Source: Clostridiales bacterium | Lineage (GTDB): Bacteria > Bacillota > Clostridia > Oscillospirales > CAG-382 | Direction of reading: 5' to 3' | Length of the DNA stretch: 64,000 nt | Assembly (NCBI GenBank): GCA_016286245.1 | Contig: JAEESG010000001.1 | Location: forward strand, 460 to 64,459 | Part shown: in pieces, positions 1-64,000 of the stretch | Layout of the letters: the number at the start of each line of letters is the position of its first letter | Numbering within the stretch: position 1 is the stretch's first letter | Program-made: the position numbers and the translations under genes | Notes under the pieces: model-generated | What the model was told of the DNA's origin: nothing | Seen by the model: only the letters and a program-made list of their open reading frames with translations | Database searches by the model: none

Positions 1-150
1 AAAGAGGGAGTACTTTTGGTACTTTTTCGCGAAAAAGTACAAGAAAAACGACTTTTTTGTTCCTTTCTCTCAGGGGAGAGAAAGGAACCCAAAGAGAGCT
101 GAAACATAAAAAGGTTTATGGCTGCATTTGTGCGGAAAACCGCACGAAAA
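1..150. repeat. Hairpin repeat cluster A (REP/BIME-like). It holds a truncated inverted H2-type arm (1-18) and the 22-bp perfect palindrome GTACTTTTTCGCGAAAAAGTAC (19-40). It also holds a 13-bp-stem hairpin GTTCCTTTCTCTC-aggg-GAGAGAAAGGAAC (59-88) with a CCAAAGAGAG tail, and a GTGCGG-aaaa-CCGCAC hairpin (130-145).
   Basis: Palindromes were read directly. Bases 55-107 are identical to 9045-9097. Bases 18-40 are identical to 63648-63671. Bases 1-18 are the reverse complement of 63811-63828 with 1 mismatch. Confidence 0.85.
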
Positions 151-275: not shown

Positions 276-3200
276 ATGAAAAAGCGGCTATTTTACAGTA
301 TAATAGGTATTTTTGTTTTTATTTTCATGTTTTTCGGCGTAGCAAGCAGGACGCCGCTCGACCTCTCCACCCCGGCGGACGCCTTTATGGAGATTACGGA
401 ATTTGAATTTGAAAAGACAGGATTTCTTCAAGGCGAGTACCATTTGACGTACGAATGCGACGTCTGCGGCACGACGTGGGTTCTCGGAGGAACTTTTGAC
501 GGCTACAAAATGCCGGATTCGACGAAGGAGCAGCTCGTGTGGAACAACATGACCGACCGCGAAAAAAGCGATTTCCCGGGCTACTGCGAATACTGCTATT
601 TCGAGCATCTGTGCACCGGCTGTTATAAAGAAATCGATGACTGCGAAAAGTACTGCAAGGAGTGCATGAAGTGCAACGACTGCTGGGACCAGAGCAAGCA
701 CTGCAACGAATGCTGCGAGGAAAACACGCTTTGCGACGGCTGTCTCGGCATCGGCGAATACCGTTGTATTGACTGCCACAGTTCCGACGATTTCTGCTTT
801 GCCTGCGAAACCTGTCTTATTGCGGCGGGAGCGGACGGAAACGTGTGCGAAAGCGACGACCCGAAACCGCACTGCCTTGAATGCTGCGAGGACTATCGCT
901 GCGACGGATGCGCGGAATGCTTTCTCGGACGTCAGGACGATTACTGCTTAAACTGCTTTGAGTGCCTCAGCTGTGCGGCGGCGGCAAGCGACCACTGCAA
1001 AGAGTGTTACATCTGCTTTGACGTGCAGGAAGCGTGCGAGGGAACCGACGACTTCTGCCGTCCCTGCTGCGTTGCGGCCGGCAACCACTGCGATGAATGC
1101 GACGAGCACATAGACGACAACTGGTGCGAGGGCGGCATGGACGGAAGACACTGCCGCGACTGCGCCGAGGCCAACGACTGGATATGCGAACAGTGCGACA
1201 GATGCGCCGTCTGCAATGACTTCTCATTTTGCGACGAATGCGGACTGTGCTTTGAATGCTGCAGTGAAAATGCCGCGAACGAGGGCTGCGAGTGCCTTGA
1301 ATACTGCATCGAATCGGCTGATTTCACCGACGAAGCCCATCTGTGTCAGCAGTGCTTCTACGCCTTCTCGTGCGCCGAGGAATTCTGCGACACCTGCGGA
1401 CTGTGTAAGGAATGCTGTGAGATGAACGCCGACGAATACGGCTGTACGTGCGGCCTTTGCGTCGAGGACAGCGAATTTGAGGAGCATCTGTGCGAGCAGT
1501 GCGGACTCCCGACTTGCGAAAGAGGCGACTTCTGCGACGAATGCGGACTGTGCGAGGAGTGCTGTCTTGAAAACTCAGAAGCAGAGGGCTGTTCCTGCGG
1601 TATCTGCATAGAAAACAGCGATTTTGAAGACCCCGACCATAAGTGCGCGGACTGCGGACAGTTCTCGTGTAATATAGATTTCTGCGAATACTGCGGACTG
1701 TGCCTTGACTGCTGCGAGAGCAACTCCTCTACCGAATACGGCTGTTCGCACGGCGTCTGCACGGATGACCCCGAATGGAACGACCACTACTGCGATACCT
1801 GCGGAAAATGTAAGGAAGACTGCGACTGCGGACAGGAGTGCTGCGCCGACCCGTGGGCGGGAAAATCGCTTCACGGCACCGACGTGCAGATAGGCGAAAT
1901 ACTGATACAGCCTTTCAATAAGAAAAAACACGTTACGCACGACAACATGTCTGCGCCCCAGGCAAGCCTTGCCACTTTCCGCACGAAGGTTTACGACCCG
2001 AACGGAAACCTGAATTATCAGTGGTATCAGAAGAAAAACGGCGGCGCGCCCGAGGCGCTCGTCGACAATACGCGCTACGTAGAATACAGGGACGAGACGT
2101 TCATAATCGTTGACGGCGCGGCGACGCCGAGACTTACGGTTGCGACTCCGTCCGACGCCTGCCACGTAAATTACACCTACTACTGCGTAATATCCGATTC
2201 GCACGGAAACGTGCTTTCCACAACGGATGAAGCGCGCCTCATAGGAAAACATACCTACGAGTGGAAATGGGAAGACGACCATTTTCACCGTCAGGTCTGC
2301 ATAGGAAGCGGATGCGGAGACACAAAGTCCGGCATGAGAAAAGTACACGACATAGGTCCGTGGCGCTTCCTGTCGTATGCGACGGCGACGACCGGCGCAA
2401 CGCTTGCGCGCACCTGCAACGTCTGCGGAGGTATCAGCGAATCGATTAAAACCGAGCCTTTGGGAGCAAACCATACGGCTCACAACTACATATACATTCC
2501 CGTAACGCAGACAGACAAAAACGGCAAAGAGGTAAGCTATACGCACATTAAGGTCTGCCGCTGCGGAAAGAACGACGGACTCGAGGAGTATCACGACTGG
2601 AATCAGTGGATAGTAACCGAAGCCGCCGACGACCACCACAAGGGCTCGAAATATCACGAGTGTCTGAAATGCAACTACCGCGAGACGGTTGAAATACCCA
2701 TTCAGACGCACGAGCATATATTCAACCTTCACGAATACGACGCCGCGTTTTACAGGGTGGGCGCCGACAGAAAGTATCACTGGCAGTACTGCGGAGACCC
2801 CGACTGCGAGGCTGTTGCTTTCAAGGAAGAACACACTTACGGAGGCTGGATGTGGCAGTTAAACGTACCGCTGGCGCTTTATGACGCGACGATATACAGA
2901 GAATGCCAGGTTTGCGGATACATTGACGTAAGGACGATAAGGGCCGGATTCCATCCGCTCGCGTTTATAAACGCCTCCAAATCGGTGCTTTCCGCCGATA
3001 ACTGGGATTCGGAGGAAAAATATACCTGCGAGGTTACGGCAAAGCCTCCGAAGGGATATACCTTCTACCGCTGGAGAGATACCGGAGAATGCGGAATAAT
3101 TTTTGAAGAGTATTACGAAACATATCCAAACGGAGACCCTAAAAGGGATTCCAACGGCAATATAATATGGAAGCGGTATAACGTTTACGACGAGACGGTC

Positions 3201-6200
3201 GTAATATCCCTCGACCGCTACGACAAAGACGGCAATTTCCACGACCTCAACACGCTTTACGAGCTTACGGCGGAAATCAGCAGAATAGATAACGACGTAA
3301 CGGTTTACTACCCTGACGGCTTCTCATATACGCTGACCGAAGGCGAAGCTCTCGACGCCGAGGAATTCGGTATCGACGGCACGGGAGACGTTATATGGTA
3401 CGAATCGCAGGTAGAAGACGAATACGGCTACCGCACGGTAACGATTCACCTTGACGGCTACGACGGCGGTCCGCTCGTGCTTGAAAACACGGGGCTGCCC
3501 TGCGACTTTAACATAGTCGTCGACGGCGACTCCACGATTACCGCAAACGGTAAAAACTTTGCGATTTTAGGATGCGCTGCCGGCGGAAACATAAAGATTT
3601 CCTCGCCGAACGGCGCAGAGCTGAGACTCAACGTAAGAAGCGGCAAAGGAGCCGAGGTTTACGGCATAAAGGCGCGCCGCGCAAAGAAGTGGTATGGAGA
3701 CAAAATCACGATATGCGGAAATATACTCGTACAGCTTGACGTTACCAACACGAGATCCGACGGCGAGGCGTTCGGTCTTTACTCCTCGTCGTGGGTTGAG
3801 ATACTTGACCAAGCGTCCGTCGAAATGACAATAAGAAGCTACGCAGATTACCTCGGCGACGACAGAACCATTGCGGCGACCGGCGTTTATGCGAAAAAAG
3901 AGCTTCAGATAGATACGACGGGCTATATAGACATAGTCGTATACGACGTTGACGTCTCAAACGGCATGAAGGGCAGAGGCATCAACGCAAAAGACGTGAT
4001 AATCGACAATATCGGCAGCATGACCGTCGTATATCCCGCAAATTCCAAAAACGCATACAAGAGAAAGGTTTCTTACGACCACAAGGCGTACATTTTCTAC
4101 GCATACGACGACGGAAAGAGACATTACTACAGGAACGGCGCGCTTGCGGATGTAAACGACGTAAAGAAGCTCGTAATCGAGCCGGGTTATCCCGTAACCT
4201 TCGACGTCGCAAGCGGTTCTACGCTCAACGTTGACTACCTTTACACAAACGACCTCGGCGATTACATGATAAAGCCGGGCGACGACCTGATATTCTACAC
4301 GGCTCCCGCGTCGGGACACTACAAGGAGAACGTAAGAGAGGGCGCGAAAGTGCTCAAGCCGAGCTCCTCCGACGACGGCGTAAGAACGAAATATGTGCTT
4401 GAGAACATAACCGCTCCGCATACGTTCACCGTTGACACGGGATACCTGTTCAGACCGTTCGACTCACAGCCGGCGCTCTCGCAGACGGACGTGTTCTTCG
4501 GAAGCGAAGCGATAGTAACGTTTACCATGAACAACGTATTTTCGGCGCTTGAAGGACACGCAAAGTTCGACGGAGACAAGCCGACAACCCCGAAATTCGC
4601 GCTTAAGAAGCTTTCGGGAGGCGCAGCTTCAAGCGGAGACCTTATTTCCCACGGTCAGACCGCAAACGAGGTGTTCTTACAGCGCTACAACGAGGAGACC
4701 GAATTCTTTGAGAACACGGGAATCTCGTTTGAGCCGACTGCTCTCGGAAACGTATCCTTCAACGACGAGGAATACTCGTCGCGGCTCGCAACCGTAAGGT
4801 ACCGCCTCATGGTGCTGTACGACGGCATGGAATACTGCTCCGACGAGTTCACGGTTCACTGGACCGACAACGAAAACGACAGGACGACGCCGGTTGCGTC
4901 CGCTGTCGAAATATACATCAAAAAAGCGCTCAGAGGCTATCCGCTCGGGGTATACGAGGACGGAGGCGCCTGGGAGAGACTCGGAAGCGAATACGAACTG
5001 CTCGTATACGACGTTGACCAAGGAAAAGGCTACGTCGAGACGAAAAACGAGTACAACAAGGCGGTAAACGTAAAGAAAAACCGCAAACTGCTCAAGGTTG
5101 CCGAATTTGACTACCACACCGGTCTGCTTACGCTTTACGGCGACCTTCAGGGAGCCGATTTTGACGGCGACGGCAACACGGAATGGTACAACCTTTCCGA
5201 TTTTCTCGTTGCAATACGCGTTCCGTCGACCGTAAACGGCGGAATTACGATAGACGTAAGAGAAGAAACGAATATTTCGGGACATTACGAAGATTTCGGA
5301 AACGAAGGCTGGTACGGCAGCGGCGGACTTGAAAACGTAACGCATACCGGCGCGATTCCGGCGGTTATACAAAACGAGAGCGAATACGGCTCCGTTCACA
5401 TAACCTCAACCACGGAAAGCGATGCGTTTTTAATCCTCGAACGCACCGGAACCGAGTATTTCGAGGGCATAACCTACTACGGAATCAAGGCGAACGGCGA
5501 CGTTACGATTGACGGCGACGTAAACGTACAGATTTTCTCCGACGCGAAGTCCGGTTACGAGGACGCGTACGGCAAGCTTGCGTACCGCATCGGCGTATAT
5601 GCCGAGGGAGACGTCAACGTAATCCAAGACGCGAATTTGGACGTAGTTTTTGAAGCAAACACCAACGGTACGGCGTTCCTTAAAGGAAAAGCGCTCGGAG
5701 TCAAGGCGCAAGGCAGCGTAAACATCCTTGATTACGGCTGGATATACCTGTACTGCGAGGCAAAGAAGTCAAATCTCGCCGGCACGTACTACATGCTCGA
5801 AGCAAGCGGCTTGAATATAGCAGGACACGGACAGCTGTCGGCATTCGGCGAAAAGGAAATTGATATTCCCGTTTATATTGACGGCGACGCGTTCATTTCG
5901 ACGACAGGAAAGATAGAACTCAGCTCGAAGAGCAGCAACGGCGCATATTCAAACTGCATCAAGACCACCGGCGACCTTGTTATCAAGGAGCCCACGACGA
6001 TTTTGTTCGAGTATCTGGGAAGACCGGCGGGCGGCAGTCCCGTATATGAAGGCGACGTTGAATATGACGGCGACGTAGTATGCTATCTGACAGACGGCGC
6101 GGCGTCCACCAAAGAAGAATATTACCCCGGAGTTCCCTACACCGTTGCGGTTGAAACCGATTACGGCGCGGCTGACTTCGGCAACCACGAAATAATCATA

Positions 6201-8990
6201 AAACGTAACGGCGTCGAGATTTCACAGCAGGTCGACGCGGGTTATCTTAATGTATGCAAGGGCGACTTTGTAACGTACACGGCGGTCGACGCTCTTGACG
6301 GATACAGCTTTGACGGCTGGGTTGTCGAATCGAGCATTGCGCCCGAGGACCTTGTGATAAACGGACGTGAAATTTCGTTTACGATGCCCGACAAAGACTT
6401 AAAGCTGCACGCGGTTTACTCCAGCTACGCGTTTGAAGAGGAGCCCCCGTACTTCATCATCACGAACAAGGCTTCGACGGAAGGCAAGATTCACTGGAGA
6501 ATCGACACGGGCGAGTCGACCCTGTACGGGGTAGACCTTGAGTACCTGCACACCTCCGTAAGCGGCGAAACCGAGTGGCGCTCCTTCAGCAGCGGAGCTA
6601 ACGGATGGAGGCTGAGTCAGGATATTCAGGCGTTTATGAACCCGAGCAACGGCGAATATATCTATAAAGGAGCGTCGCTTGTAGGACTTGCGGGAAGCAG
6701 CACGCTTGAAAGAGTAATCGACACAAACGAGTACAAGACCTTCCGCATACATGCGTGGGGCATCAATGACTATTACAGTAAACCCTTCACGATAGATTTC
6801 GCAAAGGGCATACACGTTCTTCTGTCGGAAGACAGAGAAAATCCCGGTCTTGCAATTCCCGCGGACTACATGGGAACGGAATATCTCGTAAACTTTGCAA
6901 AATACGTTTACTCGGACATCGGACCCATGAGCTATTCGCTGAACTTTGCCGACCTGTTCGGCCCGATAAGCCCGAGCGTATGCCAGGCGAACATGTTTGA
7001 AAACGGAATGCTGCGCTTCATAAGAAACGGCGCGCACTCGGCGGTTTACGGCATAGAAGGCTCGCTTTACGTTACGGCAACCGACGAAACGAGCGGCAGA
7101 TCCTTCAATATTCCGTTCGATTTCGGCGAAATATACGAATGCGAAGTATATCCGCTCATAGTTGCGGGTAAGAAGGTAACCGAACGCAATAAAGATAACG
7201 TATTCGGCGACGGAACGGTTTCGTACGACCCCGAAACCAAGACGCTGACGCTGCACGACGCGACGATAGACGAAATTTATCCGATGCGTTCCGACGCCGA
7301 GCTTACAATCGCGGCATACGCGATACTGAGCGTACAGGACCTCAACATCAATCTTGTCGGCGAGAACGTCATCAACGTTTCGCGCAACTCGCTGTGCCAC
7401 ACCCAGGCGGTAGGAAGCATCTATACGGGCAACACGGTGGGTATAGGAAACGTGATAAACGACACGTGGCGTCCGTACCTGACGGAAAGCGACGATTTCC
7501 GCATAAATATCAGCGGCGAGGGCTCGCTTGAAATTTTGATTGACGGTTTCTACGGCGACGGAATCCACAGCATAGGCGACGTAACGATAGACGGCGGCAA
7601 CGTAAAGATAAAATCCGAATACTCGGGTATTTCCTCCGAAACCGGCTCGTTTGTAATGAATTACGGCACGCTTGACGTTGATACCGCGCAGAGAAGCTGC
7701 GTAGCATTGTCCGGCAGCGATGCCCGCTTCACGATAAACGGCGGAACCGTAAGCTTAAACGGCGGAACCGACAGCTACGTAGTTTCCATGGGACCCACAA
7801 ACTACCAGAATGAAAACTATATGCAGCTGAACGACGGTGAACTGAGACTTGACACAAAGTCCGCAACGTACGACCTCACAAGCCGCACGTTATACTATAC
7901 CGACTGGATGTATAAGCTTTACGGCGCAAACGGAAACAACGCGATGGCGCCTCTTGAATACGGCGAGGTTGCTTCGTCGTTCGACCACCTGAAATACGTA
8001 CGTCAGTATGCAATCTGGGTAAACGGCAAGCAGCTCACGTCGGAAAATCTTGAGGTACAGTGCGGCAGAGGATACGCGTTCTACGTTCCCGAAGTGAATA
8101 CGCTTTACCTCAACAACGCGCAGATCACAAAGGGCGTTGCATACTGGAACGGACCTCTTGCGGCGGCGGGCATCCGCTCGCAGCAGCCCGTAAACGTTTA
8201 CTTCTCGGGCAATAACTCGATAGACCTGTCCTCGAAAGAATATTACGAGATCAACGGAGATCCGTACGAGCTTCAGAGCGAGGAAACCGAAAACAGCCGC
8301 GAAATATTCGGTATAGAAGTGTCCCAGTCCCTCGGATTTGACGACTACTACCTCGGAATTTACGGCACGGGCTATTGCACAATGACCGGAATGAGCACCG
8401 GAATCAGCGCCGGCACCGGAAATATGCCGATAATCATCGACGGCCCCGGTATACAGATTACCGACAGCGACGGCGGTATCGAGGGCGAAATTGATATAAA
8501 CTCCGGTTATCTGGGAATAGAAGCCGATTACTTCAGTATCTACGGACTTATCGATACGTCCGACTACAGCCCGATTTTCGCATACGGCGGAGCGTCTAAA
8601 ACCAACTTTTCGCCCGTAGATATGTCGGTTGTCGAAAACGCGGCAAATATGGGCTGGGGTTACGATTATCCGTTCTTCAGACTGCATAACAGAGCGGGCT
8701 TGACCGAACAGACTATCGTCGGAGATATCCTTGAAATATCGGATGAAGAAACAAAGATCGGTGTAAGCACGGAAGGCCTTGCAAAAGAAGTGCCGACCGA
8801 CGTAATCGTTATCCAGTATAAGAACGGAAGAGTAACGCAGGCAAGAGTCGTTACGGTTTATCCGTCCGATTACGACGACGTAATCCTCCTTACCTTCGGT
8901 ACGGATAAAAACGCAAAATACCGCGTTTACGCACTCGATAAACAGCTGAAACCTCTTACCGACGTCTATAATATAGGAACTGAAGAATAA
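276..8990 (+). CDS. Giant (2,904 aa) membrane-anchored or secreted multidomain surface protein of unknown function. Domain order: N-terminal hydrophobic signal/anchor, CXXC-rich region, an Ig-like domain, His/Cys zinc-ribbon-like modules, GY[ST]FxxW (Listeria-Bacteroides-repeat-like) segments, and several beta-solenoid-like G-x-V/I-x-I blocks.
   Basis: An uninterrupted 8.7-kb ORF. A GGAGGTG RBS lies about 10 nt upstream of the ATG. The N-terminus MKKRLFYSIIGIFVFIFMFFGVA is hydrophobic. A rho-independent terminator follows at 9004-9031. Domain calls come from motif reading only (YQWY...YYCVISD Ig-like; GYSFDGW; repeated G-D-V-T-I-D-G strands). Confidence 0.9.
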   Translation: MKKRLFYSIIGIFVFIFMFFGVASRTPLDLSTPADAFMEITEFEFEKTGFLQGEYHLTYECDVCGTTWVLGGTFDGYKMPDSTKEQLVWNNMTDREKSDFPGYCEYCYFEHLCTGCYKEIDDCEKYCKECMKCNDCWDQSKHCNECCEENTLCDGCLGIGEYRCIDCHSSDDFCFACETCLIAAGADGNVCESDDPKPHCLECCEDYRCDGCAECFLGRQDDYCLNCFECLSCAAAASDHCKECYICFDVQEACEGTDDFCRPCCVAAGNHCDECDEHIDDNWCEGGMDGRHCRDCAEANDWICEQCDRCAVCNDFSFCDECGLCFECCSENAANEGCECLEYCIESADFTDEAHLCQQCFYAFSCAEEFCDTCGLCKECCEMNADEYGCTCGLCVEDSEFEEHLCEQCGLPTCERGDFCDECGLCEECCLENSEAEGCSCGICIENSDFEDPDHKCADCGQFSCNIDFCEYCGLCLDCCESNSSTEYGCSHGVCTDDPEWNDHYCDTCGKCKEDCDCGQECCADPWAGKSLHGTDVQIGEILIQPFNKKKHVTHDNMSAPQASLATFRTKVYDPNGNLNYQWYQKKNGGAPEALVDNTRYVEYRDETFIIVDGAATPRLTVATPSDACHVNYTYYCVISDSHGNVLSTTDEARLIGKHTYEWKWEDDHFHRQVCIGSGCGDTKSGMRKVHDIGPWRFLSYATATTGATLARTCNVCGGISESIKTEPLGANHTAHNYIYIPVTQTDKNGKEVSYTHIKVCRCGKNDGLEEYHDWNQWIVTEAADDHHKGSKYHECLKCNYRETVEIPIQTHEHIFNLHEYDAAFYRVGADRKYHWQYCGDPDCEAVAFKEEHTYGGWMWQLNVPLALYDATIYRECQVCGYIDVRTIRAGFHPLAFINASKSVLSADNWDSEEKYTCEVTAKPPKGYTFYRWRDTGECGIIFEEYYETYPNGDPKRDSNGNIIWKRYNVYDETVVISLDRYDKDGNFHDLNTLYELTAEISRIDNDVTVYYPDGFSYTLTEGEALDAEEFGIDGTGDVIWYESQVEDEYGYRTVTIHLDGYDGGPLVLENTGLPCDFNIVVDGDSTITANGKNFAILGCAAGGNIKISSPNGAELRLNVRSGKGAEVYGIKARRAKKWYGDKITICGNILVQLDVTNTRSDGEAFGLYSSSWVEILDQASVEMTIRSYADYLGDDRTIAATGVYAKKELQIDTTGYIDIVVYDVDVSNGMKGRGINAKDVIIDNIGSMTVVYPANSKNAYKRKVSYDHKAYIFYAYDDGKRHYYRNGALADVNDVKKLVIEPGYPVTFDVASGSTLNVDYLYTNDLGDYMIKPGDDLIFYTAPASGHYKENVREGAKVLKPSSSDDGVRTKYVLENITAPHTFTVDTGYLFRPFDSQPALSQTDVFFGSEAIVTFTMNNVFSALEGHAKFDGDKPTTPKFALKKLSGGAASSGDLISHGQTANEVFLQRYNEETEFFENTGISFEPTALGNVSFNDEEYSSRLATVRYRLMVLYDGMEYCSDEFTVHWTDNENDRTTPVASAVEIYIKKALRGYPLGVYEDGGAWERLGSEYELLVYDVDQGKGYVETKNEYNKAVNVKKNRKLLKVAEFDYHTGLLTLYGDLQGADFDGDGNTEWYNLSDFLVAIRVPSTVNGGITIDVREETNISGHYEDFGNEGWYGSGGLENVTHTGAIPAVIQNESEYGSVHITSTTESDAFLILERTGTEYFEGITYYGIKANGDVTIDGDVNVQIFSDAKSGYEDAYGKLAYRIGVYAEGDVNVIQDANLDVVFEANTNGTAFLKGKALGVKAQGSVNILDYGWIYLYCEAKKSNLAGTYYMLEASGLNIAGHGQLSAFGEKEIDIPVYIDGDAFISTTGKIELSSKSSNGAYSNCIKTTGDLVIKEPTTILFEYLGRPAGGSPVYEGDVEYDGDVVCYLTDGAASTKEEYYPGVPYTVAVETDYGAADFGNHEIIIKRNGVEISQQVDAGYLNVCKGDFVTYTAVDALDGYSFDGWVVESSIAPEDLVINGREISFTMPDKDLKLHAVYSSYAFEEEPPYFIITNKASTEGKIHWRIDTGESTLYGVDLEYLHTSVSGETEWRSFSSGANGWRLSQDIQAFMNPSNGEYIYKGASLVGLAGSSTLERVIDTNEYKTFRIHAWGINDYYSKPFTIDFAKGIHVLLSEDRENPGLAIPADYMGTEYLVNFAKYVYSDIGPMSYSLNFADLFGPISPSVCQANMFENGMLRFIRNGAHSAVYGIEGSLYVTATDETSGRSFNIPFDFGEIYECEVYPLIVAGKKVTERNKDNVFGDGTVSYDPETKTLTLHDATIDEIYPMRSDAELTIAAYAILSVQDLNINLVGENVINVSRNSLCHTQAVGSIYTGNTVGIGNVINDTWRPYLTESDDFRINISGEGSLEILIDGFYGDGIHSIGDVTIDGGNVKIKSEYSGISSETGSFVMNYGTLDVDTAQRSCVALSGSDARFTINGGTVSLNGGTDSYVVSMGPTNYQNENYMQLNDGELRLDTKSATYDLTSRTLYYTDWMYKLYGANGNNAMAPLEYGEVASSFDHLKYVRQYAIWVNGKQLTSENLEVQCGRGYAFYVPEVNTLYLNNAQITKGVAYWNGPLAAAGIRSQQPVNVYFSGNNSIDLSSKEYYEINGDPYELQSEETENSREIFGIEVSQSLGFDDYYLGIYGTGYCTMTGMSTGISAGTGNMPIIIDGPGIQITDSDGGIEGEIDINSGYLGIEADYFSIYGLIDTSDYSPIFAYGGASKTNFSPVDMSVVENAANMGWGYDYPFFRLHNRAGLTEQTIVGDILEISDEETKIGVSTEGLAKEVPTDVIVIQYKNGRVTQARVVTVYPSDYDDVILLTFGTDKNAKYRVYALDKQLKPLTDVYNIGTEE
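1227..1850 (+). repeat. Intragenic tandem repeat. Four ~150-bp (49-52 aa) units each start with FC(D/E)xCGLCxxCC and carry 11-14 Cys.
   Basis: Unit starts fall at 1227, 1383, 1530 and 1680, all in frame. The nucleotide core ttctgcgaNNNNtgcggactgtg recurs at each start. Confidence 0.9.
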
Positions 8991-9003
8991 AGTAAAATAA
9001 ATA

Positions 9004-9031
9004 AAAAACCTCGCGTAAGCGAGGTTTTTTG
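9004..9031 (+). terminator. Rho-independent terminator of the giant gene
   Basis: AAAAACCTCGC-gtaa-GCGAGGTTTTT stem-loop followed by a T-run, 14 nt after the stop codon. Confidence 0.85.
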
Positions 9032-9044
9032 TTTATTTTTACGG

Positions 9045-9190
9045 TTTTGTTCCTTTCTCTCAGGGGAGAGAAAGGAACCCAAAGAGAGCTGAAACATTAA
9101 AGAGATGTATAGTAGCATTTGCGCAGTAAAAATTCATCTGAAAATGTATTAAAATTGAAAGTTCTTTGCCGAGCTTTCTTTCAAGAAAGC
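9045..9190. repeat. Hairpin repeat cluster B. It has an H3 hairpin (9049-9078) plus CCAAAGAGAG at the left end, a central GCATTTGCGCAG segment, and an inverted CAAAGAACTTTC plus H2-type hairpin GCTTTCTTtcaaGAAAGC (9157-9190) at the right end.
   Basis: Bases 9045-9097 are identical to 55-107. Bases 9157-9190 are the reverse complement of a near-copy of 63683-63717. The element has an overall imperfect inverted-repeat layout. Confidence 0.8.
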
Positions 9191-9197
9191 GACCTGA

Positions 9198-9593
9198 TTA
9201 AATAAGATCCGTCAGTTTTTTTGAGTAAAAGAAGTTGTGGACAAGCTCGTCGTATTCGTGCCAGAGGGGGAGGGTGCGGCACTCCTTTGCGCGCGGGCAT
9301 TCTTTTGCGTCGGGCGCAAGGCAGGCGACGGCTGTAAGCGAATTTTCCATAAGGTCTATAATTTCTCCGACGGAATATTCCTCGGGTTTTCTGCAAAGCA
9401 TATATCCGCCGCCTTTTCCGCTCGAACCTTTTATAAGATTGCCTTTCACGAGGTCTTTTACGATTATTTCAAGATATTTTTTCGATATTTCCTGTCTTTC
9501 GGCTATATCTTTCAGCGGAACGTATCCTTTTTTGGTCTGCTCCGCAAGATCGAGCATAACCCGCAGCGCATACCGACCTTTTGTCGAAATCAT
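9198..9593 (-). CDS. Rrf2-family transcriptional regulator (IscR/CymR-like)
   Basis: The N-terminus MISTKGRYALRVMLDLA is typical of the Rrf2 HTH. Three clustered Cys are present (CLAPDAKECPRAKEC). The start was trimmed from the ORF-track 9671 to the ATG at 9593, which has an AAGGAAG RBS. Confidence 0.9.
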   Translation of the reverse strand: MISTKGRYALRVMLDLAEQTKKGYVPLKDIAERQEISKKYLEIIVKDLVKGNLIKGSSGKGGGYMLCRKPEEYSVGEIIDLMENSLTAVACLAPDAKECPRAKECRTLPLWHEYDELVHNFFYSKKLTDLI

Positions 9594-9614
9594 ACGATCT
9601 CTTCCTTTCTTTTC

Positions 9615-9647
9615 ACCTATTATACCACAGGTTAAATAGGTAATCAA
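9615..9647 (-). promoter_or_regulatory. Candidate promoter of the Rrf2 gene with an embedded inverted repeat (putative autoregulatory operator)
   Basis: On the minus strand: TTGATT (9642-9647), 17 nt spacer, TGgTATAAT (-10 at 9619-9624). The inverted repeat ACCTATT (9615-9621) / AATAGGT (9635-9641) spans the spacer. Confidence 0.55.
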
Positions 9648-9690
9648 GCATTTTATCTGATTTTTTTGCAAAACCGTATATTTTTATGTA

Positions 9691-9755: not shown

Positions 9756-10943
9756 ATGAATATATACGCGGATAACGCCGCGACGACAAAAATGAGCAAA
9801 AAGGCGGTTTCGGCGATGATGCCGTATTTTGAAGAACTTTACGGCAACCCGTCAAGCCTTTATTCTGCGGGACAGAGGGCGAAAGAGGCGATAGAGGAGG
9901 CGCGCGAGACGATAGCCGGGATTATCGGAGCTTCCGCGCGCGAGATTATATTTACGTCGGGCGGCACCGAGAGCGACAATCAGGCGATAATGTCGGCGGC
10001 GGCAAACGGAAAGCGGCAGGGAAAATATCACATCATTTCCGACGCAATCGAGCACCACGCGGTGCTTCACACGTTGAAAAAGCTTGAAAAAGAGGGCTTT
10101 GAAGTAACCTACGTTCCCGTTCACAAAAACGGTATAATAAACGTTTCGGCGCTTGAAAAGGCGATAAGGGACGACACCTGCCTTGTTACCGTCATGTACG
10201 CAAACAACGAGATAGGAACGGTACAGCCGATAAAGAAGATAAGCGAAATATGCCGTCGGCGCGGAGTCGTTTTCCACACCGACGCGGTGCAGGCGGTCGG
10301 ACACGTTCCGATAGACGTAAACGACCTTGGCGTTGATATGCTTTCGGCGTCGGCGCATAAATTTCACGGCGCAAAGGGCACGGGATTCTTATACGTTCGG
10401 CGCGGAGTGCGTATTTCGAGTTTTATAGAGGGCGGCGAGCAGGAAAGAGGAAGACGCGCGGGCACGGAAAACGTCGCGGGCATAGTTTCGATGGGAGCGG
10501 CTCTCAAAGAAGTTGCCGCGGATATAGACAAAAACGTACCGAGAATTACGGCTTTGCGAAACAGACTTATCGACGGGCTTTCCGAGATACCGCATTCGGC
10601 GCTCAACGGAGACAGGGAAAAGAGGCTTCCCGGAAACGTGAATTTCTGCTTTGAGGGCATTGAGGGCGAGTCGCTGCTGCTGCTCCTCGATGACAAAGGA
10701 ATAAGCGCTTCTTCGGGATCTGCGTGCGCGTCGGGCTCGCTTGACCCGAGCCACGTGCTTCTTGCGATAGGCAGGGTGCACGACGTTGCGCACGGCTCGC
10801 TCAGACTTACGCTCGGCGAGGATATAACGCAGAAGGAAATCGCGTATATTATAAAATCGGTTAAAGAAGCGGTTGAATATCTGAGAGGATTTTCTCCCGT
10901 CTGGAACGACTGCGTGTCGGGCAAATCCAAATTCATATTGTAA
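9756..10943 (+). CDS. nifS: Cysteine desulfurase (NifS/IscS, class V aminotransferase)
   Basis: 395 aa. PLP-lysine motif SAHKFHGAKG and the active-site loop SSGSACASG are present. GGAGGA RBS. Confidence 0.95.
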   Translation: MNIYADNAATTKMSKKAVSAMMPYFEELYGNPSSLYSAGQRAKEAIEEARETIAGIIGASAREIIFTSGGTESDNQAIMSAAANGKRQGKYHIISDAIEHHAVLHTLKKLEKEGFEVTYVPVHKNGIINVSALEKAIRDDTCLVTVMYANNEIGTVQPIKKISEICRRRGVVFHTDAVQAVGHVPIDVNDLGVDMLSASAHKFHGAKGTGFLYVRRGVRISSFIEGGEQERGRRAGTENVAGIVSMGAALKEVAADIDKNVPRITALRNRLIDGLSEIPHSALNGDREKRLPGNVNFCFEGIEGESLLLLLDDKGISASSGSACASGSLDPSHVLLAIGRVHDVAHGSLRLTLGEDITQKEIAYIIKSVKEAVEYLRGFSPVWNDCVSGKSKFIL

Positions 10944-47727: not shown

Positions 47728-47823
47728 ATGGCAGGCTGTCTTGCAAATGCTTTTGACGACAACAACAACCTTTGGCTTATAATTCTCATTGCAGTCATTA
47801 TCCTCTGTTGCTTCTGCGGCTGA
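47728..47823 (+). CDS. Unannotated 31-aa tiny transmembrane peptide (YjcZ / tiny_TM_bacill-like): MAGCLANAFDDNNNLWLIILIAVIILCCFCG
   Basis: An AAGGAGG RBS lies 7 nt upstream of the ATG. A dedicated terminator sits at 47883-47919. The ORF is too short for the ORF track. Confidence 0.6.
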   Translation: MAGCLANAFDDNNNLWLIILIAVIILCCFCG

Positions 47824-47882
47824 TATAAACATACAGTCGATGCCGCACGGAAATTTTTGCGTTTTGCGGCAAAAATTGACTT

Positions 47883-47919
47883 ACCGCCATACTTTCCGGA
47901 AAAGTATGGCGGTTTTTTT
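47883..47919 (+). terminator. Rho-independent terminator of the tiny peptide gene
   Basis: ACCGCCATACTTT-ccgga-AAAGTATGGCGGT followed by TTTTTTT. Confidence 0.85.
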
Positions 47920-47972
47920 GTTAAAATTATCCTGCGCGGGAAACAATGCGAAAAAACGGGATATATTGTGCC

Positions 47973-48001
47973 TTGATTATGCAAATGGGAGAATATATAA
48001 T
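47973..48001 (+). promoter_or_regulatory. Candidate sigmaA promoter of the CAP-domain gene
   Basis: TTGATT (47973-47978), 17 nt spacer, TATAAT (47996-48001). Confidence 0.5.
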
Positions 48002-48025
48002 TGTTTTCAGAAAGGAGAGATTTTG

Positions 48026-48934
48026 ATGAAAAAGCTGTTTGCTGTCATTATTTCCGTAATGTTTGTTGCACTTCCTTTAACTGTAAGCGCAAGAACGATA
48101 AGCGGAAGCAAAATTTCCGTAAAAGACATCCTTGATAGTGTGAAAAATTATAAGAATATTTCGGTTAACGCTGCCGAACAAAACTCCGACTGCCCGATAA
48201 AGAATATTATCGGCAAAAATCTTAAGGGCGTCGTTTTCGATATCCTCACCAAAAATGAAATACCCTGCACGGATTGCGAAAACACGAATGAAACCGAAGA
48301 CGTTCTTAAAAGCATCATTGAAAAGTTCATAAAAACTTTCCCCGAAATAAAAGAGGAGCCGAAAGAGGAAATTCCCGAACAAGCTGAAGAACCCGAAGAA
48401 CGCGAAGAACCCGAAGAACGCGAAGAACCCGAGGAACACGAGGAACCTGAAGAACACGAGGATTGGCATGAGCCCGAAATCATTCTTCAGCCCGGACGTC
48501 CCGAACAAATCGAACGTCCCGAACCCGAACACAGCGAGCCCGAAAATACTTACAAAAACGAAAACGAATACGTAAACGAGGTTTTGTCGCTTGTAAACAA
48601 GTACAGAAACGCATCTGGACTTAATTCCGTAACGCTTGACGAAAATCTGTGCGAAGCGGCGCAGATAAGAGCAAAAGAGACGAGAACGTCGTTCTCGCAC
48701 ACGCGCCCGTCGGGCAAAAGCTGCTTTACCGTGCTGTCCGACCTCGGAATAAGCTACAGAGGCGCCGGCGAGAACATAGCGTACGGACAGTCGTCGCCGG
48801 ATGAGGTTATGACTGCCTGGATGAACTCCGAGGGACACCGCGCAAACATAATGAACCCGTCCTTTACAAAACTCGGCGTGGGCGTTTATTCCGTTTCGGG
48901 CATAATCTACTGGGCGCAGATGTTCACGTATTAA
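48026..48934 (+). CDS. Secreted CAP/SCP (YkwD-like) domain protein with an acidic PEE-repeat linker
   Basis: The signal peptide is MKKLFAVIISVMFVALPLTVSA. The C-terminal CAP motifs read NKYRNASGL...GENIAYGQ...WMNSEGHRANIMNPSFTKLGVG. The start was trimmed from 47789 to the ATG at 48026, which has an AAGGAGAG RBS. Confidence 0.88.
   Translation: MKKLFAVIISVMFVALPLTVSARTISGSKISVKDILDSVKNYKNISVNAAEQNSDCPIKNIIGKNLKGVVFDILTKNEIPCTDCENTNETEDVLKSIIEKFIKTFPEIKEEPKEEIPEQAEEPEEREEPEEREEPEEHEEPEEHEDWHEPEIILQPGRPEQIERPEPEHSEPENTYKNENEYVNEVLSLVNKYRNASGLNSVTLDENLCEAAQIRAKETRTSFSHTRPSGKSCFTVLSDLGISYRGAGENIAYGQSSPDEVMTAWMNSEGHRANIMNPSFTKLGVGVYSVSGIIYWAQMFTY
48386..48457 (+). repeat. Intragenic 18-bp tandem repeat x4, encoding (EEPEE[RH])4
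   Basis: The units are GAAGAACCCGAAGAACGC x2, GAAGAACCCGAGGAACAC and GAGGAACCTGAAGAACAC, all in frame. Confidence 0.9.
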
Positions 48935-61753: not shown

Positions 61754-63535
61754 ATGGCGGAATTTTTGGGAAATTCAAAGAGGACCGATTACTGCGGAGA
61801 CGTTCGCGACGGACATATAGGAAAAAACGTTACCGTAATGGGCTGGGTACAGAAGACGAGAAACCTCGGCAGCCTTATTTTCACGGATTTGCGCGACAGA
61901 ACGGGAATCGTTCAGCTCGCGTACGACGAAAACACCGAAAAAGCGCTGTTTGAGAAGGCGTCGACGGTGAGAAGCGAGTACGTGCTTTGCGCAAGCGGAG
62001 TCGTTCGCGAGAGGGACAGTAAAAATGCGAATATCCCGACGGGAAACGTCGAAATATACGTAAACGAACTCAAAATCCTCGCGGAGTCCCAGACGCCGCC
62101 GTTCGACATCGTCGAAAACTGCAAGGCGAACGAGGAATTAAGGCTTAAATACCGCTATCTCGACCTGCGGCGCCCCGACCTTATGAAAAATATTCTCATG
62201 CGCCATAAGCTCGCAAAGGTTACGCGCGATTATTTCGATAAAAACGGATTTATCGAAATCGAAACGCCGATTCTCATAAAGTCCACGCCCGAGGGCGCGA
62301 GAGACTACCTCGTGCCAAGCCGCGTGCATAAGGGCTCGTTTTATGCGCTTCCGCAGTCGCCGCAGCTTTATAAGCAGCTTTCCATGGTTGCGGGATTCGA
62401 CAGATATATGCAGATTGCAAGGTGCTTCCGCGACGAAGATTTAAGGGCCGACAGACAGCCGGAATTTACGCAGATAGACCTTGAAATGTCGTTCGTGGAA
62501 ATGGAGGACGTGCTGTCTGTTGGCGAAGGCTACATGAAGACGGTGTTCAAGGAAATTCTGGATAAGGATATAACGCTGCCGCTTCCGAGACTTACCTATA
62601 AGGACGCAATGGAGAGATTCGGCAGCGACAAGCCGGATATAAGATACGGCATGGAAATCGTCGACATCGCGGACGAAGTGAAGGACTGCGGTTTCGGAGT
62701 GTTCACGTCGGCGCTTGCGCAAAACGGCGCCGTAAGGGCGATAAAGGCTGAAAACTGCGCCGAAATCTTAACGAGAAAAGAAATAGACAAGCTCACCGAA
62801 TACGTAAAGGGCATAGGCGCAAAAGGGCTTGCTTATATAAGGTGGACGAAAGAGGGAGTTTCGTCGTCGTTTGCAAAGTTCATGACGGAAGACGAAATGA
62901 AAGGAATAATCGAAAAGACGGGCGCAAAAGAGGGCGACGTCGTATTCATTATCGCCGACACCAACAAAAACAAGGCGCTGTCCCAGCTCGGCGCGCTCAG
63001 AACGGAAGTGTCAAACAGAATCGGCGTCGAAAAGAAGGGCATCGGCCTTTTGTGGATAACGGAGTTCCCGTTCTTCGAATTTGACGAGGAGGCGGGAGAA
63101 TGGGTTGCCATGCACCACCCGTTTACTTCTCCGCTCGACGAGTGCCTCGAATATCTTGAGACGGACAAATCGAAGGTCAGAGCAAAGGCGTACGACCTCG
63201 TGCTCAACGGAATCGAGCTTTCCAGCGGCTCCATAAGAATTACGAATCCCGAGCTTCAGAGCAGGATTTTCGACCTGCTCGGGCTTTCCAAAGAGGAAGC
63301 GTACGAGAAATTCGGCTACCTGCTCGACGCTTTCAAGTACGGCGCGCCGCCGCACGGAGGCATGGGAATCGGCCTTGACAGGCTTTGCATGCAGCTTTTC
63401 GAGTGCGACAGCCTGCGCGACGTCATAGCGTATCCGAAGGTACAGAACGCATCGGAACTGATGACCTCGTGTCCCGCGCCCGTTGACGAAAAAACGCTCG
63501 CGGAACTCGGAATTAAAACGGTTGAAAACAAATAA
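61754..63535 (+). CDS. aspS: Aspartate--tRNA ligase
   Basis: 593 aa. FRDEDLRADRQPEFTQID and GGMGIGLDR motifs are present. Confidence 0.97.
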   Translation: MAEFLGNSKRTDYCGDVRDGHIGKNVTVMGWVQKTRNLGSLIFTDLRDRTGIVQLAYDENTEKALFEKASTVRSEYVLCASGVVRERDSKNANIPTGNVEIYVNELKILAESQTPPFDIVENCKANEELRLKYRYLDLRRPDLMKNILMRHKLAKVTRDYFDKNGFIEIETPILIKSTPEGARDYLVPSRVHKGSFYALPQSPQLYKQLSMVAGFDRYMQIARCFRDEDLRADRQPEFTQIDLEMSFVEMEDVLSVGEGYMKTVFKEILDKDITLPLPRLTYKDAMERFGSDKPDIRYGMEIVDIADEVKDCGFGVFTSALAQNGAVRAIKAENCAEILTRKEIDKLTEYVKGIGAKGLAYIRWTKEGVSSSFAKFMTEDEMKGIIEKTGAKEGDVVFIIADTNKNKALSQLGALRTEVSNRIGVEKKGIGLLWITEFPFFEFDEEAGEWVAMHHPFTSPLDECLEYLETDKSKVRAKAYDLVLNGIELSSGSIRITNPELQSRIFDLLGLSKEEAYEKFGYLLDAFKYGAPPHGGMGIGLDRLCMQLFECDSLRDVIAYPKVQNASELMTSCPAPVDEKTLAELGIKTVENK

Positions 63536-63539
63536 TAAA

Positions 63540-63575
63540 AAAGCGCCCTTTGCGAAAGCAAAGGGCGCTTTTTCT
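63540..63575 (+). terminator. Rho-independent terminator of hisS-aspS
   Basis: GCGCCCTTTGC-gaaa-GCAAAGGGCGC followed by TTTTTCTTTT. Confidence 0.9.
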
Positions 63576-63647
63576 TTTAACATTTTATTCAAAGTTTGTC
63601 GATTATATGGTATTATAATTATATTAAATATTATATATTGATTTTAC

Positions 63648-63850
63648 TGGTACTTTTTCGCGAAAAAGTACCAAAAAGTTCCCGCTTTCTTGAAAGAAAG
63701 CGGGGCAAAGAACTTTCAAATTTTTATGTTTTAGGTGTGGTTTCTCTGCACAAGTGCGGCTGTTTGCAAAATAAATCTTTTTACGTACTTTTCTCCCGCA
63801 AGAAAAGTACCAAAAGTGCTCCCTCTTTCTTGAAAAGAAAGAGGGGTAAA
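63648..63850. repeat. Hairpin repeat cluster C, made of two tandem H1-H2 units. The first unit is GTACTTTTTCGCGAAAAAGTAC (63650-63671) followed by CCGCTTTC-ttgaaa-GAAAGCGG and CAAAGAAC (63681-63717). The second is GTACTTTTCT-cccgca-AGAAAAGTAC (63785-63810) followed by CCCTCTTTCTT-gaaa-AGAAAGAGGG and TAAAGAAT (63821-63853).
   Basis: Read directly. The units are homologous to clusters A and B. The region lies in a non-coding tail of more than 400 bp at the window end. Confidence 0.85.
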
Positions 63851-64000
63851 GAATACGCCGAAAAACCCGACGCTGTTTTTGGAAAAGAGAAAACTTTCAG
63901 CGAAAATTCCGCGCCGTGATGTTTTTCGGCGGCTGCAAAAGCACATTTTTTTCGAAGTTTCACTTTGCACCCGTCGAAAAAAATCTGCTCGGCTACACGT

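Follow-up and report, generated by a model that had tools for sequence, protein, structure and literature searches.

The best-supported explanation for the intergenic hairpins of the window (the whole 64-kb stretch of DNA analysed, a Clostridia-type chromosome segment) is, at a probability of roughly 0.55, that they form a lineage-restricted family of small modular palindromic repeats, selfish or semi-domesticated DNA of the REP/BIME-REPIN-MITE kind. The family works like REP/BIME/REPIN elements and is not filed here as a member of them. Its working unit would be a triad consisting of hairpin H1, hairpin H2b, a spacer in which a core module is optional, and an inverted hairpin H2a. By analogy with the action of Y1/RAYT enzymes on REPs, the units may spread via a single-stranded intermediate that is recognised by a hairpin-recognising enzyme acting in trans. 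Copies settle beside terminators and stop codons, and the clusters that they form serve as breakpoints in recombination and assembly. When read in one direction, H2b together with the T-rich linker and H1 arm resembles an intrinsic terminator, so that the host probably tolerates the copies and at times makes use of them as 3'-end structures.

Module types and their arrangement

Comparison of the window with a sister strain, a relative at 92% identity and 16 metagenome contigs gave the H1 module as GTACTTTT..AAAAGTAC followed by CAAAAG, with the general form GTACTTTTnn-loop-nnAAAAGTAC and then CAAAAG. The H2b module has a pyrimidine 5' arm (CTTTCT), a purine 3' arm (AGAAAG) and the tail (G)nAAAGA(A)C, and the H2a module has a 13-bp stem (CTTTCTCTC/GAGAGAAAG) with the tail CCAAAGAGAGCTGAAAC. 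A fourth module, the core, has the family consensus AGCCGCAYTTGTGCAG, and A/T linkers are a further recurring part of the set. All are intergenic, with sizes of 21-27 nt for H1, about 24 nt for H2b and about 30 nt for H2a.

The smallest recurrent unit was the triad H1> H2b> spacer <H2a, 130-370 nt in length, whose spacer may contain the core, and it was found in at least 10 further genomic contexts. A short form of 130-170 nt is present in L123, L124, L126 and L128-L132. A long form of about 330 nt begins at window position 63785 and is repeated in L127, L133 and L136, and L138 carries its first 160 nt, after which the contig ends. Because H1 is palindromic, two units can use one H1, as is the case at window 19-40, and units that share an H1 can chain into clusters of up to 1.24 kb. 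Module maps of the window, L121, L127, L134, L135, L138 and L139 displayed alternately oriented units in clusters with defined linkers, which agrees with the sequence-only reading that the units occur in both orientations and in mosaic clusters.

In L136, the inverted H2a hairpin and linker (about 48 nt) that lie between tail and H1 in both L138 (13838-13895) and L127 (6828-6885) are missing at about 9800-9835. If the loci are orthologous, this difference suggests that single modules may be gained or lost.

The 8-16 nt that follow each H2 hairpin resemble its 3' arm in both composition and local sequence (41 non-redundant loci, for example L008, L015, L065 and L125, and window 63704-63713 and 89-98), with purines after a purine arm and pyrimidines after a pyrimidine arm (score 4.76, versus 3.40 when permuted). 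An intramolecular triple helix, in which the tail is a mirror repeat of the 3' arm, was rejected as an explanation because a direct repeat, which would allow alternative pairing, fits equally (4.56 versus 4.76 for the mirror; permuted 3.40).

Module loci in the window

Within the 64 kb, regex scans, including looser ones, confined the modules to three intergenic loci (Table 1). Locus A lies upstream of the gene for the 2,904-aa surface protein, locus B lies between the bidirectional terminator of this giant gene (9003-9030) and the Rrf2 stop codon (9198), and locus C follows the aspS terminator (63537-63574).

Table 1 Repeat modules and neighbouring genes in the window
Feature	Position	Strand	Remark
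3' part of H2b-type hairpin with linker (AAAGAGGGAG TACTTTTG)	1-18	-	Minus-strand H1>H2b unit cut by the window start; 96% complementary to 63803-63828
H1 palindrome GTACTTTTTCGCGAAAAAGTAC, 22 nt	19-40	.	Common to a leftward H2b unit and a rightward H2a unit
A/T linker AAGAAAAACGACTTTTTT, H1 to H2a	41-58	+	Linker type also in L121, L127, L135, L138
H2a hairpin (59-88, 13-bp stem) with tail CCAAAGAGAGCTGAAAC	59-105	+	Direct reading, repeat finder, alignment of copies
Core-like module ATGGCTGCATTTGTGCGG (consensus AGCCGCAYTTGTGCAG)	118-135	+	Direct reading, comparison with related copies
Gene for 2,904-aa Cys-rich surface protein	276-8990		
147-nt composite: TTTT, H2a> (9049-9078), tail, core (9107-9126), inverted tail, <H2b (9161-9190)	9045-9191	+	
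Rrf2 regulator gene	9198-9671	-	
aspS	61754-63535		Window also carries iscS, iscU, mnmA, hisS
H1 palindrome identical to 19-40	63650-63671	+	
Linker CAAAAAGTT, H2b hairpin (63681-63704), tail GGCAAAGAAC	63672-63713	+	Minus strand: hairpin then AACTTTTTGG
Core module (CTGCACAAGTGCGGCT on the plus strand)	63747-63762	-	
H1 variant GTACTTTTCT-CCCGCA-AGAAAAGTAC	63785-63810	+	First module of the ~330-nt triad
Linker CAAAAGTGCT, H2b' hairpin (63821-63845), tail GTAAAGAAT	63811-63854	+	
Long spacer of the ~330-nt composite, inner inverted repeat CCGTCGAAAAAAA/TTTTTTCGACGG	63855-64000	+	Aligned with L127, L133, L136

Every hairpin that had been listed by coordinate was found there on direct reading. 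H1 occupies 19-40 and 63650-63671, with a variant at 63785-63810; H2a lies at 59-88 and 9049-9078; and H2b lies at 63682-63703 and 63821-63845, with an inverted copy at 9173-9190 and a truncated one at 1-10. An unguided repeat finder aligned 55-111 directly with 9045-9101 (98%) and reported complementary pairs at 9151-9191 and 63683-63723 (93%), 14-48 and 63642-63676 (94%), and 1-26 and 63803-63828 (96%). The inverted-repeat layout proposed for locus B is a single composite, of which the same species has another copy elsewhere at 99% identity. The repeat at the right end had been taken to stop at 63853; it instead extends beyond the window as a composite of about 330 nt that is present at at least four other loci, and the spacer at 63855-64000 leads past the window end to an inverted H2a and further modules.

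An aspS protein listed at 100% identity is located on an NCBI contig of 64,591 nt, which would make the window nearly an entire contig and place loci A and C close to its ends. Two of the three module loci in the 64 kb would then be at contig ends, an effect that multi-copy repeats have on assemblies. Across genomes, contigs tended to end just downstream of H1.

The surface protein contains FCDECGLC-type repeats at 657-1741 as well as InlB B-repeat and Cthe_2159 domains, and its gene (276-8990) is bracketed by the direct H2a repeats at 55-111 and 9045-9101, which are 98% identical. A 9-nt tandem repeat (GAAGAACCC/GAAGAACGC) of about 12 units is located at 48365-48472, inside an ORF at 47789-48934, and codes an acidic E/P-rich stretch.

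Stem pairing is maintained by compensatory changes

The compensatory stem changes that had been read from the window were confirmed on 17-27 distinct copies from related genomes, with stems that were 90-97% paired. For H1 (27 sequences), 97% of cells were paired; the outer three pairs are partly imposed by the search patterns, and the two inner pairs, which are free, occurred as CG16/UA6/GC2/AU1 and UA10/CG8/GC3. The H2a stem (17 sequences) was likewise 97% paired, and its regex-free outer pairs were GC9/UA7 and AU11/CG6. For H2b (20 sequences), pairing was 90.5%, with CG, GC and UA as alternative outer pairs and some decayed copies. For H1, H2a and H2b alike, none of the 500 shuffles and no slid register reached the observed percentage paired, number of doubly changed cells or covariation score; as the copies are related to each other, these shuffle controls overstate independence. 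For H2a and H2b, the shuffles were not beaten on the two measures based on counts of pairs or of pair types.

Both strands of locus C folded far more stably than shuffles (z = -5.2 and -5.5), and in the fold of locus B the two tails pair with each other. Since the stems are kept by compensatory changes, selection would appear to act on the folded single strand.

Modules are copied and reshuffled among related genomes

Three related genomes (window/L135, L121 and L123) each have their own module arrangement after aspS, distinct in both the sets of modules and their orientations. In the sister strain (L121, aspS protein listed at 100%), 484 nt separate aspS from a Peptidase_M50 gene. The first part of this gap matches the window and is followed by a different arrangement, in which H1 with a GTTC/GAAC outer stem is joined by an A/T linker to a forward H2a, a core motif and an inverted H2b. 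The relative at 92% aspS identity (L123) has one simple triad after aspS, composed of H1 (GCAC/GTGC), H2b (CGCGC/GCGCG) and an inverted H2a (TTAC/GTAA). Scanning metagenomes for the H1-H2b junction yielded 16 contigs. One of these, L135, matches window locus C with one mismatch and continues beyond the window, with 1.24 kb of modules alone between aspS and the start of purB. No modules were seen after aspS in relatives at 85-87% identity; these relatives were rejected as a clean empty site because the neighbouring genes also differ.

A second line of evidence came from the composite at locus B. Window 9045-9191 and L135 538-690 differ by 1 mismatch in 147 nt (99%) and have unrelated flanks on both sides. 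A target-site duplication was not found, in that no direct duplication flanks the two 147-nt copies. On the evidence of these alignments, copies have been duplicated to new intergenic sites and clusters have been reshuffled between strains. Recombination or gene conversion, instead of transposition, may have been the route of duplication.

Chance similarity, or the decay of copies of one ordinary terminator, is a highly improbable source of the hairpins. The sequences are indeed AT-rich, of low complexity and near real terminators, but the H1 pattern matched the window 3 times against 0.03 expected from shuffles, and the H1-linker 14-mer matched it 4 times against 0.59 expected. Covariation is present, the 147-nt copy is 99% identical at an unlinked locus, and the same modules recur in the 16 metagenome contigs.

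A synteny break lies inside the cluster after aspS, with aspS-purB in the window's strain versus aspS-Peptidase_M50 in L121 and L123 (compared over window 63536-64000, L121 5451-5934, L123 4469-4766 and L135). An AT-rich promoter-like stretch after the aspS terminator (63577-63625) is conserved, and the sequences diverge directly after it.

The layout of H1, with inverted arms of 10-12 bp and a spacer of 4-8 bp, is also that of a tyrosine-recombinase core site, and target sites (lox/dif/pdif- or attC-like) through which a site-specific recombinase reshuffles gene modules would fit with the broken synteny inside the cluster and with the direct H2a repeats around the gene for the 2,904-aa protein. 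We consider such sites improbable, as no recombinase or integrase gene recurs beside the modules and the spacers vary between copies. Furthermore, compensatory changes in both arms are predicted by base pairing and not by two half-sites of one protein. Integron attC sites have paired ends, R''(RYYYAAC)...R'(GTTRRRY), with extrahelical bases, and form arrays between cassettes that are served by an integrase. The module ends, GTTCC...GGAAC or GTAC...GTAC, do not by eye have the R''/R' polarity of attC.

Relation to known repeat families and candidate enzymes

The REP/BIME-like reading was then set against known families. Rfam had no relevant match for the modules in gathering-score and E-value scans that covered the window, L135 and 20 other loci. 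At gathering score, it returned only a tRNA for the window. Only a tRNA and a tmRNA were returned for 18 H1 loci, and E-value scans of L135, L106, L119 and L066 produced sub-threshold noise only.

The modules share several properties with the REP/BIME/REPIN elements of Enterobacteria and Pseudomonas (RAYT = TnpA-REP, Y1 HUH). Both are extragenic palindromes of 20-40 nt with many copies in both orientations. The mosaic clusters with defined linkers are like those of BIMEs, and the 147-nt H2a>core<H2b composite, an inverted hairpin doublet around a spacer, is like a REPIN. Location at gene 3' ends, beside terminators, and stem pairing kept by compensatory change are further likenesses. In contrast to the GC-rich stems of REPs, the module stems are AT-rich and strand-asymmetric, with a pyrimidine arm opposite a purine arm. 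The modules also differ from REPs in having three or four types with a fixed grammar, a Clostridia host, no GTAG/CGTC tag and no RAYT in the available sequence.

The modular repeats of other bacteria provide a second comparison. The BOX elements (boxA-boxB-boxC) and RUP of Streptococcus pneumoniae and the Correia elements of Neisseria are modular, non-coding, multi-copy intergenic repeats (BOX in a Gram-positive host) that can form stable hairpins, vary between strains and affect neighbouring transcription, and in these respects they resemble the window modules. BOX modules differ in that they are longer and are not each a perfect hairpin. RUP and Correia elements carry terminal inverted repeats together with target-site duplications linked to known IS transposases, and neither feature was seen for the window modules. 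We know of no sequence similarity of the modules to BOX, RUP or Correia elements.

Membership in REP/BIME proper is a separate matter. REP superfamilies are defined by an unpaired GTAG or CGTC tag (PMC3733652). This tag is absent from the modules, in which GTAC (variants GTTC/GAAC and GCAC/GTGC) is paired within the stem on both arms. The description of the hairpins as REP/BIME-like thus stands for their multi-copy intergenic occurrence, both orientations and mosaics, but does not support assignment to REP/BIME itself.

No Y1/RAYT homologue was detected in the window (about 64 kb of genome) or in L121-L139 by regex and phmmer searches over ORFs, and the 6,075 ORFs of the window and all collected contigs included only two, in L006 and L037. 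Both were rejected as mobilisers of the modules, as they lie in Balneola and Ignavibacteria loci, which belong to other phyla, and have their own unrelated GC-rich REPs. These IS200/RAYT-like Y1 genes, at L006 1065-1491 (-) and L037 7313-7780 (+), are flanked by the GC-rich REPs AGCGAAGACCTGAAGGACTTCGCT and GATGGGCAAAGCCCATCG, which are unrelated to H1. No transposase of any kind linked to the modules was found, nor was a parent IS with module-like ends; the composites do end in inverted hairpin modules. BLAST of the window cluster against plasmids gave no match.

All-against-all BLASTP of the ORFs within 3 kb of 130 H1 matches revealed no recurrent flanking protein family. This argues against a riboswitch or leader and against a protein-linked guide RNA, and these candidates were set aside as unlikely.

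In Proteobacteria, families of small palindromic repeats have been studied well. The REP superfamily survey did not report them in Firmicutes, a phylum that it does not list among the carriers (PMC3733652). The REP/REPIN idea would gain a new host group through a family in Clostridia with a fixed grammar, clear covariation of structure and no recognisable transposase, and the question posed by such a family is which activity copies the modules. In practice, the clusters break metagenome assemblies and mark strain-level rearrangements near housekeeping genes and the giant surface-protein gene.

Terminator-like properties of the modules

The sequence-only reading held that the hairpins are not canonical terminators because no U-tract follows them. 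This was correct for the plus strand but not for the minus strand, where CTTTTGGTACTTTT comes after each H2b hairpin of locus C and both hairpins were flagged as terminator-like. The terminator scan gave AACTTTTTGG after 63704-63681 and CACTTTTGGT after 63843-63819. The T tract lies 1-5 nt past the H2b stem and is interrupted (CTTTTGGTACTTTT), and neither strand of H1 or of H2a has a T tract. The modules are similar to intrinsic terminators in that H2b, on the strand opposite to H1>H2b, has a stable stem-loop and a T-rich tract, and in that they follow stop codons in several relatives. They are unlike intrinsic terminators in their occurrence in either orientation, their long arrays and their interrupted, offset T tract.

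The genomic context of the modules was assessed in the relatives. In L131, the triad starts about 10 nt after a stop codon in the terminator-like orientation, its H2b is flagged with the tail CTCTCTTTTG, and it is the only terminator-like structure between two co-directional genes. A triad also follows a gene in L124 and L130, in the same orientation as in L131. The terminator orientation of H2b is co-oriented with the gene in these three contigs, and not at window loci B and C. The 51 H1 loci for which both neighbours are known comprised 17 between convergent genes, 13 and 14 between co-directional genes and 7 between divergent genes, which indicated a 3'-end bias and no strand bias.

One alternative is that the modules act mainly as RNA (intrinsic terminators, attenuators, 3'-UTR stabilisers or small RNAs), whose multiplicity reflects repeated recruitment and not mobility. 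The two flagged minus-strand hairpins of locus C with their T-rich tails, and the triads of L131, L124 and L130, speak for this explanation. So do the two H1 units of phage L161, one separating the portal gene from the scaffold gene and the other behind a structural gene, with hairpin and T tract in the gene direction. A further argument is that some phage copies resemble a small RNA gene, with a TATAAT box 2-8 nt ahead of H1 and a canonical terminator some 60 nt further on. We nevertheless regard it as unlikely. Orientation relative to genes is unbiased (13 versus 14 co-directional), and locus C has no minus-strand gene to terminate, with purB and the M50 gene on the plus strand. The locus B unit that follows the Rrf2 gene has the non-terminator orientation, and this locus already possesses a normal bidirectional terminator. 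A module pile of 1.24 kb also exceeds the needs of one terminator, and the T tract begins 1-5 nt beyond the stem. Terminator or 3'-end use as a real role of the modules, secondary or rival to that of a repeat, is put at similarly low odds.

The H1 hairpin outside the lineage

Beyond the REP/BIME-like family of the window, H1 itself is not lineage-specific. A search with the pattern GTACTTTT N4-12 AAAAGTACCAAAA, using one genome per species, detected at least 120 loci in many phyla. Among the matches listed, H1 was present in Bacteroidota, Patescibacteria and related candidate phyla, Clostridia, Campylobacterota, Ignavibacteriota, Melainabacteria, Gammaproteobacteria and Thermodesulfobacteriota. 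The pattern fixes 8 bp of stem, and nearly all listed matches have 9-12 bp. In viral contigs, the H1 pattern occurred at 26 loci versus 3, 2 and 6 for three matched control palindromes, an excess of 4-13 times.

In 44 of the 135 listed copies, a stretch of at least 5 bases in the loop region is complementary to the sequence beginning 0-2 nt after CCAAAA, as in a pseudoknot or an alternative helix; about 30 different sequences are used, and the two sides covary. The longest match between loop and downstream sequence averaged 4.19, versus 3.51 when permuted (sd 0.09). Such pairs include CTTGAT/ATCAAG (Bacteroidota), GCGAG/CTCGC (Oscillospiraceae), and ACAC/GTGT and GCGT/ACGC (phages). A pseudoknot of this kind was rejected for the window's own H1 copies, in which complementarity is at most 3 bp and is not conserved in this lineage.

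Tentatively, H1 and the tail that follows it (GUACUUUUnn-loop-nnAAAAGUAC-CAAAA) may mark a structured RNA or ssDNA element that is widespread and so far uncatalogued. Such an element would be recognised by one conserved factor that has spread horizontally, and the window family would be a local offshoot in which the hairpin was kept and the pseudoknot lost. The sharing of H1 across phyla could reflect common descent, a shared recognition factor or convergence. If H1 is one conserved recognition element across phyla, it would point to an unknown and very widely distributed nucleic-acid-handling activity.

Several further structures accompany H1 in other lineages. A rod-like imperfect hairpin of about 170 nt comes after H1 in Bacteroidota, Ignavibacteriota and Campylobacterota (L106 1640-1920 (-), L021, L088, L032, L072 and L140 2540-2670). 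This rod has the conserved centre AACTCG-[small hairpin]-CTCAAACAG and TTAACG bulges, its fold z is -4.1, and it had no Rfam match. Among plasmids, the Bacteroidota-type H1 element was found only in those of Chondrinema (L140, Chondrinema litorale NZ_CP111047.1, 2501-2670), and a comparison with phage records gave no match.

A non-coding element of about 600 nt lies between two convergent H1 units at L070 5861-6452 and L119 501-1098, both from the same Eubacteriales MAG (CAKRQU01) and 87% identical. It is partly present in L011, L061, L077 and L080, and its interior starts with GTGCGAACATACTG..., like the 5' end of a group II intron. A group II intron was considered for some Clostridia loci with GTGCG... 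about 75 nt downstream of H1, and was rejected on finding neither a match to an intron model nor a reverse-transcriptase ORF.

Among the viral contigs, L161 is a genuine siphophage with terminase, portal and scaffold genes. Phage H1 copies were noted in L161, at 711-850 and 4336-4480, and also in L147. The two L161 units are antisense to structural genes, one of them between portal and scaffold, and in several phage copies a TATAAT box is located 2-8 nt upstream of H1.
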